From Escherichia coli (GTDB lineage: Bacteria > Pseudomonadota > Gammaproteobacteria > Enterobacterales > Enterobacteriaceae), in the NCBI RefSeq assembly GCF_003334785.1, contig NZ_QOWV01000018.1: DNA of 64,000 nucleotides, one strand, 5' to 3'. The position numbers and the translations under genes were made by a program. The notes beneath the pieces were generated by a model. That model saw only the letters and a program-made list of their open reading frames with translations. It was not told the origin of the DNA and did not search any database. Positions within the stretch are counted from its first letter, which is position 1. Every line of letters starts with the position of its first letter. Positions 60,905-62,424 of this stretch are shown one piece after another.

Positions 60905-62424
60905 ATGTCACTGTCAATTGTTCATACCCGCGCAGCCCTGGGAGTAAATGCGCCCCCGATCACTGTTGAGGTACATATCAGTAAAGGTCTACCCGGCTTA
61001 ACGATGGTGGGCTTACCAGAAACAACGGTAAAAGAAGCTCGCGATCGCGTGCGCAGCGCCATTATCAATAGCGGATATGAATATCCGGCGAAAAAAATCA
61101 CCATCAACCTGGCTCCAGCTGATCTGCCAAAAGAAGGGGGACGATATGATTTACCTATCGCCATTGCGTTGCTGGCGGCCTCAGAACAGCTTACAGCCAA
61201 TAAGTTAGATGAATATGAATTAGTCGGAGAACTGGCGCTTACAGGCGCTCTGCGTGGCGTTCCCGGCGCAATCTCCAGTGCAACTGAAGCTATTAAGTCG
61301 GGCAGAAAAATTATCGTCGCGAAAGATAACGAAGATGAAGTGGGGCTAATTAACGGTGAAGGATGCCTGATAGCCGATCATCTGCAAGCTGTCTGTGCGT
61401 TTCTGGAAGGTAAGCACGCTCTCGAACGCCCGAAACCAACTGATGCAGTATCCCGGGCGCTACAACATGATCTCAGTGATGTTATCGGTCAGGAACAAGG
61501 AAAGCGAGGACTGGAAATTACCGCTGCTGGCGGGCACAACCTTTTACTGATTGGGCCGCCGGGAACAGGTAAAACAATGCTCGCCAGCCGTATTAATGGC
61601 CTGTTGCCAGATTTAAGCAATGAAGAGGCACTGGAGAGTGCTGCGATATTAAGTCTGGTAAATGCTGAATCAGTACAAAAACAATGGCGGCAGCGCCCGT
61701 TCCGCTCACCTCATCACAGTGCATCGTTAACTGCGATGGTAGGCGGTGGCGCAATTCCAGGGCCCGGTGAAATTTCGCTGGCGCATAACGGCGTGCTTTT
61801 TCTTGATGAGCTACCTGAATTTGAACGGCGTACACTGGATGCCTTGCGAGAGCCGATTGAATCCGGGCAGATCCATCTTTCACGCACACGAGCAAAAATA
61901 ACCTATCCAGCCCGTTTCCAGCTTGTTGCGGCGATGAATCCCAGCCCTACCGGACATTATCAGGGAAACCATAACCGCTGCACGCCAGAACAGACATTAC
62001 GTTATCTCAACCGGCTCTCGGGGCCCTTTCTCGACCGCTTCGATCTCTCACTGGAGATCCCATTACCACCCCCCGGCATTTTGAGTAAAACGGTAGTGCC
62101 GGGAGAAAGCAGCGCCACCGTTAAACAACGCGTAATGGCCGCCAGAGAGCGCCAATTTAAGCGGCAGAATAAACTGAATGCCTGGCTGGATAGTCCGGAA
62201 ATACGCCAATTCTGAAACTTGAGAGCGAAGATGCGATGTGGTTGGAAGGAACACTGATCCATCTGGGGTTATCGATTCGTGCCTGGCAGCGGTTATTGAA
62301 AGTTGCACGAACCATTGCTGATATTGATCAGTCTGACATTATCACACGTCAGCATTTGCAGGAGGCAGTTAGCTATCGAGCGATTGACCGTTTGCTCATC
62401 CATCTGCAGAAACTACTGACATAA
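60905..62424 (+). pseudogene. yifB: Mg-chelatase-like AAA+ ATPase YifB/ComM, reading frame interrupted by an apparent 1-nt frameshift near 62213
   Basis: Start MSLSIVHTRAALGV preceded by AGGAGG; frame stops at TGA 62213-62215 after ...LDSPEIRQF (436 aa); the remaining C-terminal 62 aa (MWLEGTLIHLGLSIRAWQRLLKVARTIADIDQSDIITRQHLQEAVSYRAIDRLLIHLQKLLT) continue in another frame from 62236; linker KLESEDA is readable in that second frame. Confidence 0.7.

Follow-up and report, generated by a model that had tools for sequence, protein, structure and literature searches.

The window analysed here, a stretch of 64,000 nucleotides of Escherichia coli DNA (contig NZ_QOWV01000018.1 of assembly GCF_003334785.1), carries a disrupted member of the YifB/ComM family, a pseudogene allele in which a single base of yifB is deleted and the product is truncated. 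The closest relatives lack this deletion, while other public read sets contain it. With high probability, the locus is best explained as a loss-of-function allele of yifB, the comM homologue of E. coli, that is genuine, recent and restricted to one lineage, and the loss of activity is suggested by analogy with the ComM proteins of L. pneumophila and V. cholerae.

On the plus strand, yifB is read in frame from the ATG at 60905 through 436 codons to a TGA at 62213-62215, with the protein ending in ...AWLDSPEIRQF, as had been described in a sequence-only reading of the window that preceded this analysis. The RefSeq-annotated yifB start corresponds to this ATG and is preceded by a strong Shine-Dalgarno sequence (Table 1), whereas a 446-codon ORF from an upstream ATG at 60875, with a Shine-Dalgarno duplex of only -1.5 kcal/mol, does not begin at the annotated start. 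The 436-aa product matches K-12 YifB (WP_000058964.1) at 100% identity over residues 1-436, and K-12 YifB is a contiguous protein of 506 aa, as stated in that reading. Another reading frame stays open from 62194 (SGNTPILKLESEDAMWLEG...) and includes a 62-codon ATG ORF at 62236-62424; the C-terminal 62 residues had been assigned to this other frame, which had been read back to the stop as KLESEDA, and the frames bear out both points. The residues add up (436 + C437 + KLESEDA at 438-444 + 62 = 506), and the earlier sum of 436 + 8 + 62 thus holds.

The deletion was placed by alignment to MG1655, NZ_OZ121069 (isolate 364_BP0073), NZ_CP147059 (strain JKHS016) and three more divergent E. coli. A single base is absent from yifB, namely the C of codon 437 (TGC, Cys) between G62214 and A62215, so that the codon reads TGA (TTCTGAAAC in the window allele, TTCTGCAAAC in the C-containing form), and this is the sole change in yifB relative to K-12 MG1655 and the two closer relatives. 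The proposal that one missing base splits an otherwise intact yifB/comM gene is therefore upheld, and the comparison with yifB from several E. coli genomes, which had been suggested as a check, locates the indel at codon 437, where the intact gene differs from the window. The homopolymer-adjacent context that had been described applies in part: the lost base adjoins an A3 run, but it is an isolated C (ctgCaaa) that does not itself lie in any homopolymer.

Table 1. Features of the yifB/comM locus, with coordinates in the window.
Feature	Coordinates	Strand	Basis
Shine-Dalgarno sequence AAGGAGG of the true yifB start	60894..60900	+	Duplex with 16S 3' end, -11.9 kcal/mol
Truncated yifB/comM frame, 436 codons and premature TGA	60905..62215	+	Frames and identity to K-12
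Deletion site, C of codon 437 missing between two bases	62214..62215	+	Alignments, k-mer searches
Out-of-frame yifB remainder, codons 438-506 and TAA, including the incidental 62-codon ORF	62215..62424	+	Frames; Pfam PF13335 on the 62-aa product
CGT codon of R459, past the stop and out of frame	62278..62280	+	Alignment with PDB 8rxd; equivalent to R463 of L. pneumophila ComM
A-run/GGGC-loop-GCCC/T-run hairpin between convergent yifB and maoP	62425..62447	.	Fold energy compared with shuffles

In the sequence collections that were searched, the deletion allele appears as restricted to a small lineage, since the deletion-spanning 33-mer (AAATACGCCAATTCTGAAACTTGAGAGCGAAGA) has no match among 5,426 complete RefSeq E. 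coli genomes; the wild-type 34-mer, used as a positive control, is matched exactly in 3,098 of these. The 33-mer was likewise not found in JGI metagenome contigs or in GTDB species-representative genomes, and the best matches to full-gene, 231-bp and 60-bp queries all retain the extra base. In MG1655, OZ121069 and JKHS016, the three closest genomes fetched, yifB is intact and encodes 506 aa; CP128440.1 is absent from the complete-genome collection. The exact 436-aa product is, however, recorded in Logan assemblies of public sequencing runs. From a 25.7-kb contig of ERR1948969, the 6,049 bp that were fetched are 100% identical to the window and contain the deletion, the TGA and the 62-codon ORF, with four further similar contigs of this run beyond those displayed, and 2,221 bp of SRR1840539 match at 100%, again with the deletion, the TGA and the 62-codon ORF. 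The question of recurrence, which had been raised from the sequence alone, thus receives a divided answer, with the allele absent from the complete genomes and present in two Logan assemblies. These two runs might stem from the same isolate, or even from the same data, and would then count as one independent observation; no paper mentioning either run was found.

Two apparent signs of a wider recurrence and one lineage marker were rejected. The 12 Logan contigs with the exact 436-aa product are not 12 copies of the allele, as six of the eight displayed merely end at 62212-62214, and among the contigs with this product the deletion together with the downstream ORF is seen only in ERR1948969 (with its four similar, undisplayed contigs) and SRR1840539. 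The six others (L005-L008, L010 and L011), which are metagenome-style contigs, stop at most 3 bp from the deletion site without showing the deletion, and they are indexed with the 436-aa product because a partial gene call ends there by chance. Exact-protein look-ups are prone to this trap, and selection from a very large pool of fragmentary contigs is its simplest explanation. The 62-aa ORF, which occurs in 516 contigs, is no evidence of recurrence either, as it accompanies many upstream disruptions (N-terminal parts of 406, 426, 450 and 214+205 aa), several of them in assemblies with further broken genes next to yifB. HemD A144 fails as a marker tying the two runs to the window, because it is widespread (329 index blocks) and those runs are not listed for it.

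The intact K-12 YifB matches three Pfam domains, namely the Lon-like ChlI domain PF13541 (residues 21-142, E = 2.5e-44), the AAA+ Mg_chelatase domain PF01078 (189-386, E = 2.5e-89) and the Mg_chelatase_C domain PF13335 (400-492). PF13541 is also recorded in the precomputed Pfam matches of the identical 436-aa product, and both the Walker A motif GPPGTGKT (G217-T224) and the Walker B residues D301/E302 are kept in the window product. It has no contiguous PF13335, as this domain is cut at residue 436 with its first ~37 residues left; with residues 437-506 (70 aa), the product loses R459 and roughly two thirds of Mg_chelatase_C, the helical domain at the C-terminus. Residues 1-493 of the intact protein align with the cryo-EM structure of L. 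pneumophila ComM (PDB 8rxd, E = 2.5e-141), and in the ungapped final block of this alignment E. coli R459 (LSIRAW) corresponds to L. pneumophila R463 (LSARGY). In the latter protein, K224, T225 and E302 of one subunit co-ordinate the gamma-phosphate of ATP together with R316 and R463 ("arginine finger"), which belong to the subunit next to it (PMC11612176). The biochemistry of ComM is known from V. cholerae and L. pneumophila. Work on V. cholerae and A. baylyi has characterised ComM as a branch-migration helicase that forms hexamers (Nero et al., 2018, bioRxiv 10.1101/147660), and in V. cholerae an N-terminal GFP fusion is functional, while a C-terminal GFP fusion is non-functional (10.1101/147660). 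The intact E. coli gene shares the Lon-like, AAA+ and Mg_chelatase_C architecture with ComM of L. pneumophila, V. cholerae and A. baylyi, and the Walker A lysine, Walker B and the arginines R315/R316 and R459/R463 are conserved; the window allele, in contrast to all three, lacks the part that carries R459/R463. Because the trans-acting R459 is lost and the C-terminal domain is broken, the truncated YifB is predicted to have neither ATPase nor helicase activity, and it is possibly unstable as well.

Whether the deletion is a real allele or an error had been left open by the sequence-only reading, and the evidence now leans towards a real allele. A genuine, rare and lineage-restricted mutation is far more probable than an assembly error, since the base lies outside a homopolymer, the deletion is the sole indel in 64 kb relative to JKHS016, and the same allele occurs in two Logan assemblies. 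A sequencing or assembly error, with TGC truly present at codon 437 of the source genome, is improbable. Such an error would fit with the absence of the allele from every complete RefSeq genome, and split yifB genes elsewhere often lie beside broken neighbour genes, as is typical of noisy long-read assemblies; here, however, yifB has intact genes beside it, namely ilvG (548 aa), maoP and hdfR, and two further public runs show the same deletion in their k-mer assemblies. Relative to JKHS016, the nearest complete genome, the window differs by 6 SNPs in addition to the yifB indel, the copy number of the hemX hexamer repeat is equal in both, and all other genes that differ from MG1655 remain intact.

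A real deletion could still leave the gene functional if the product were restored by some other route. Translation might terminate at the TGA at 62213 and reinitiate at the ATG at 62236, 21 nt further on, so that a 62-aa piece with R459 would join the 436-aa piece and restore a ComM-like ATPase. Although the gap between stop and ATG is short and the 62-aa ORF spans the conserved end of Mg_chelatase_C, this is highly improbable: the Shine-Dalgarno duplex of ATG 62236 reaches -2.7 kcal/mol, about the median of the 947 plus-strand ATGs in the window, compared with -11.9 at the real start, and ATG 62236-62238 (Met445) is CAG (Gln) in divergent E. coli, for example JEB8 and 377323_2f. As it is not conserved, this ATG is regarded as an accidental internal Met codon, and a separate C-terminal ORF would be absent from such backgrounds. 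In addition, the break falls inside one Pfam domain (400-492), residues 437-444 are missing from both pieces, and an allele of a tiny lineage fits a recent accident rather than a selected architecture. More broadly, it is very unlikely that the truncation is not null, be it that the 436-aa protein, with its Lon-like ring and Walker motifs, keeps an ATP- or DNA-binding role or that a reinitiated 62-aa peptide complements it in trans; should either apply, the locus would represent a natural split-AAA+ ComM. Selection for the loss of comM function in the lineage belongs with these improbable readings. Programmed -1 ribosomal frameshifting, or another form of recoding that yields the full-length protein, is scarcely credible. 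The two frames do overlap at 62194-62215, and a -1 shift within this 22-nt zone would produce a near-normal protein, but no X XXY YYZ slippery heptamer is present in 62150-62215, no Rfam element lies at the frame overlap, a single frame encodes the protein in every other E. coli examined, and read-through of the TGA would stay in the wrong frame and meet the next stop 13 codons on. Recoding by frameshift, read-through of the stop and overlap with a known RNA were each rejected for want of support.

The favoured reading of the locus is therefore that of a spontaneous inactivation. The loss of a single C in codon 437 (TGC) turns this codon into TGA, so that translation from the normal start stops after residue 436. 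The resulting protein retains the Lon-like domain at its N-terminus and the AAA+ core, and with residues 437-506 it loses R459, the arginine that in the ComM hexamer extends to the ATP site of the adjacent subunit. Such a truncated protein would presumably have no ATP hydrolysis or branch-migration helicase function and may be unstable. As the cell can dispense with yifB, and as the next gene is a convergent one, the deletion is expected to be without polar effect and probably near-neutral, which would make the allele an ordinary pseudogene in the making.

The surroundings of the gene are consistent with this expectation. The gene order, with ilvLXGMEDA pointing away from yifB, maoP pointing towards it and hdfR next to maoP, is identical to that in MG1655, OZ121069 and JKHS016. 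Upstream of yifB the window is identical to K-12 from 60440 onward, and the transcription signals of yifB should thus be unchanged. Downstream, maoP lies convergently on the minus strand (62449-62787) with hdfR beyond, and no polar effect is expected because no gene follows yifB in the same transcription unit. The hairpin between the two convergent genes folds with -12 kcal/mol (z = -4.76), and none of 200 shuffled sequences folds as well; it is not listed by a simple scan, and it is likely a bidirectional terminator. Separately, a T/G polymorphism is found at 60439, between ilvL and ilvX (minus strand) in the leader/attenuator of ilvGMEDA and inside a match to Rfam RF02744 (60334-60626); the window, OZ121069 and JKHS016 have T at this position, while MG1655 and several Logan contigs have G.

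The nearest known counterpart is K-12 YifB itself (b3765, WP_000058964.1; YifB family Mg chelatase-like AAA ATPase), with which the window shares the locus between ilvL and maoP and, except for the one base, all DNA between the promoter region and the stop codon, but not residues 437-506 of the product. As comM, the gene (b3765 = yifB) has been described as a conserved competence-regulon homologue of E. coli that is reported to be UV-induced (PMC1635313), and E. coli has homologues of nearly all competence genes of its transformable relatives, while natural transformation has not been seen (PMC3330819). Disruptions of the gene have arisen elsewhere: in A. baumannii, comM is inactivated by insertion of a genomic island (discussed in 10.1101/147660), and in the complete genome of E. 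coli EC2001 (NZ_CP133811.1; L014, 2224-3009) yifB is interrupted by IS1A with a 9-bp target duplication, CGCCAATTC, which corresponds to 62204-62212 of the window. The EC2001 insertion lies 3 bp from the window deletion and also leaves 436 N-terminal codons, although it is a mobile-element insertion rather than a single-base deletion. The two events appear to be independent, because the flanking SNPs differ, and their nearness appears to be a coincidence; an IS1 excision footprint was rejected as the origin of the deletion, since the missing C lies 3 bp outside the duplication and no IS remnant is present. The natural disruptions in EC2001, in other E. coli and Shigella with frameshifts and in A. 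baumannii give no sign that the gene is needed for viability, and the window allele is another ordinary inactivation of a known, dispensable gene, with nothing new in kind. Other split yifB alleles, in public assemblies with the 62-aa ORF (L018-L027), have N-terminal parts of 406, 426 or 450 aa, the 426-aa form occurring in at least 10 assemblies. In a set of GCA_0205565xx assemblies, yifB, ilvG and hdfR are each broken into pieces, a pattern that resembles indel noise from long reads. The protein cluster also includes many entries from Shigella sonnei and S. dysenteriae.

For annotation, the locus is to be described as a frameshifted yifB/comM pseudogene (codon 437) and not as a 436-aa ATPase followed by a 62-aa hypothetical protein. 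The deletion would also serve as a clean marker of a small E. coli lineage with a K-12-like, phylogroup-A/ST10-type background. If E. coli YifB proves to be active in recombination or DNA repair, the strain would provide a natural C-terminal truncation mutant without the trans-acting arginine.

The sequence of the window identifies the strain as a natural K-12-like isolate and not as a K-12 derivative, given the intact ilvG and the closer match to natural isolates than to K-12. From yigL to tRNA-Asp, the window is co-linear with MG1655 and differs from it by 11 SNPs, 12 extra bases in the hemX repeat, an AT dinucleotide in ilvG and the yifB deletion; MG1655, OZ121069 and JKHS016 are each at most 11 SNPs from the window in 64 kb. 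In ilvG (minus strand, 58668-60314), the AT at 59335-59336, which is missing in K-12, leaves 548 intact codons, whereas the K-12 copy is frameshifted. The natural isolates that resemble the window more than K-12 does come from urine, wastewater, swine and poultry.

Further variation and known elements were seen across the window. An in-frame hexanucleotide repeat, ACCTGC x4.5, lies in hemX (22921-22947). At this repeat the window is longer than MG1655 by two units (12 bases), shorter than OZ121069 by one unit (6 bases) and equal to JKHS016; in public assemblies that share its hemD lineage, HemX varies from 397 to 403 aa, and this variation in length implies a variable-number tandem repeat inside the coding region. 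Older pseudogenes common to all relatives are a frameshifted PemK/MazF-family toxin gene beside rep (~50412-50860) and a DKNYY-family remnant beside cyaY (~16497-16675), both of which are annotated as pseudogenes in MG1655, OZ121069 and JKHS016, to which the window is identical there. Rfam matches comprise the GlmZ sRNA (24234-24440, minus strand), the thermometer in the trxA 5'-UTR (45082-45181, minus strand), four tRNA matches at 28064-28497 (minus strand) and one at 28183-28266, and two tRNAs at 63844-64000 (minus strand). None of these lies near the yifB deletion, and all are expected for a K-12-like region.
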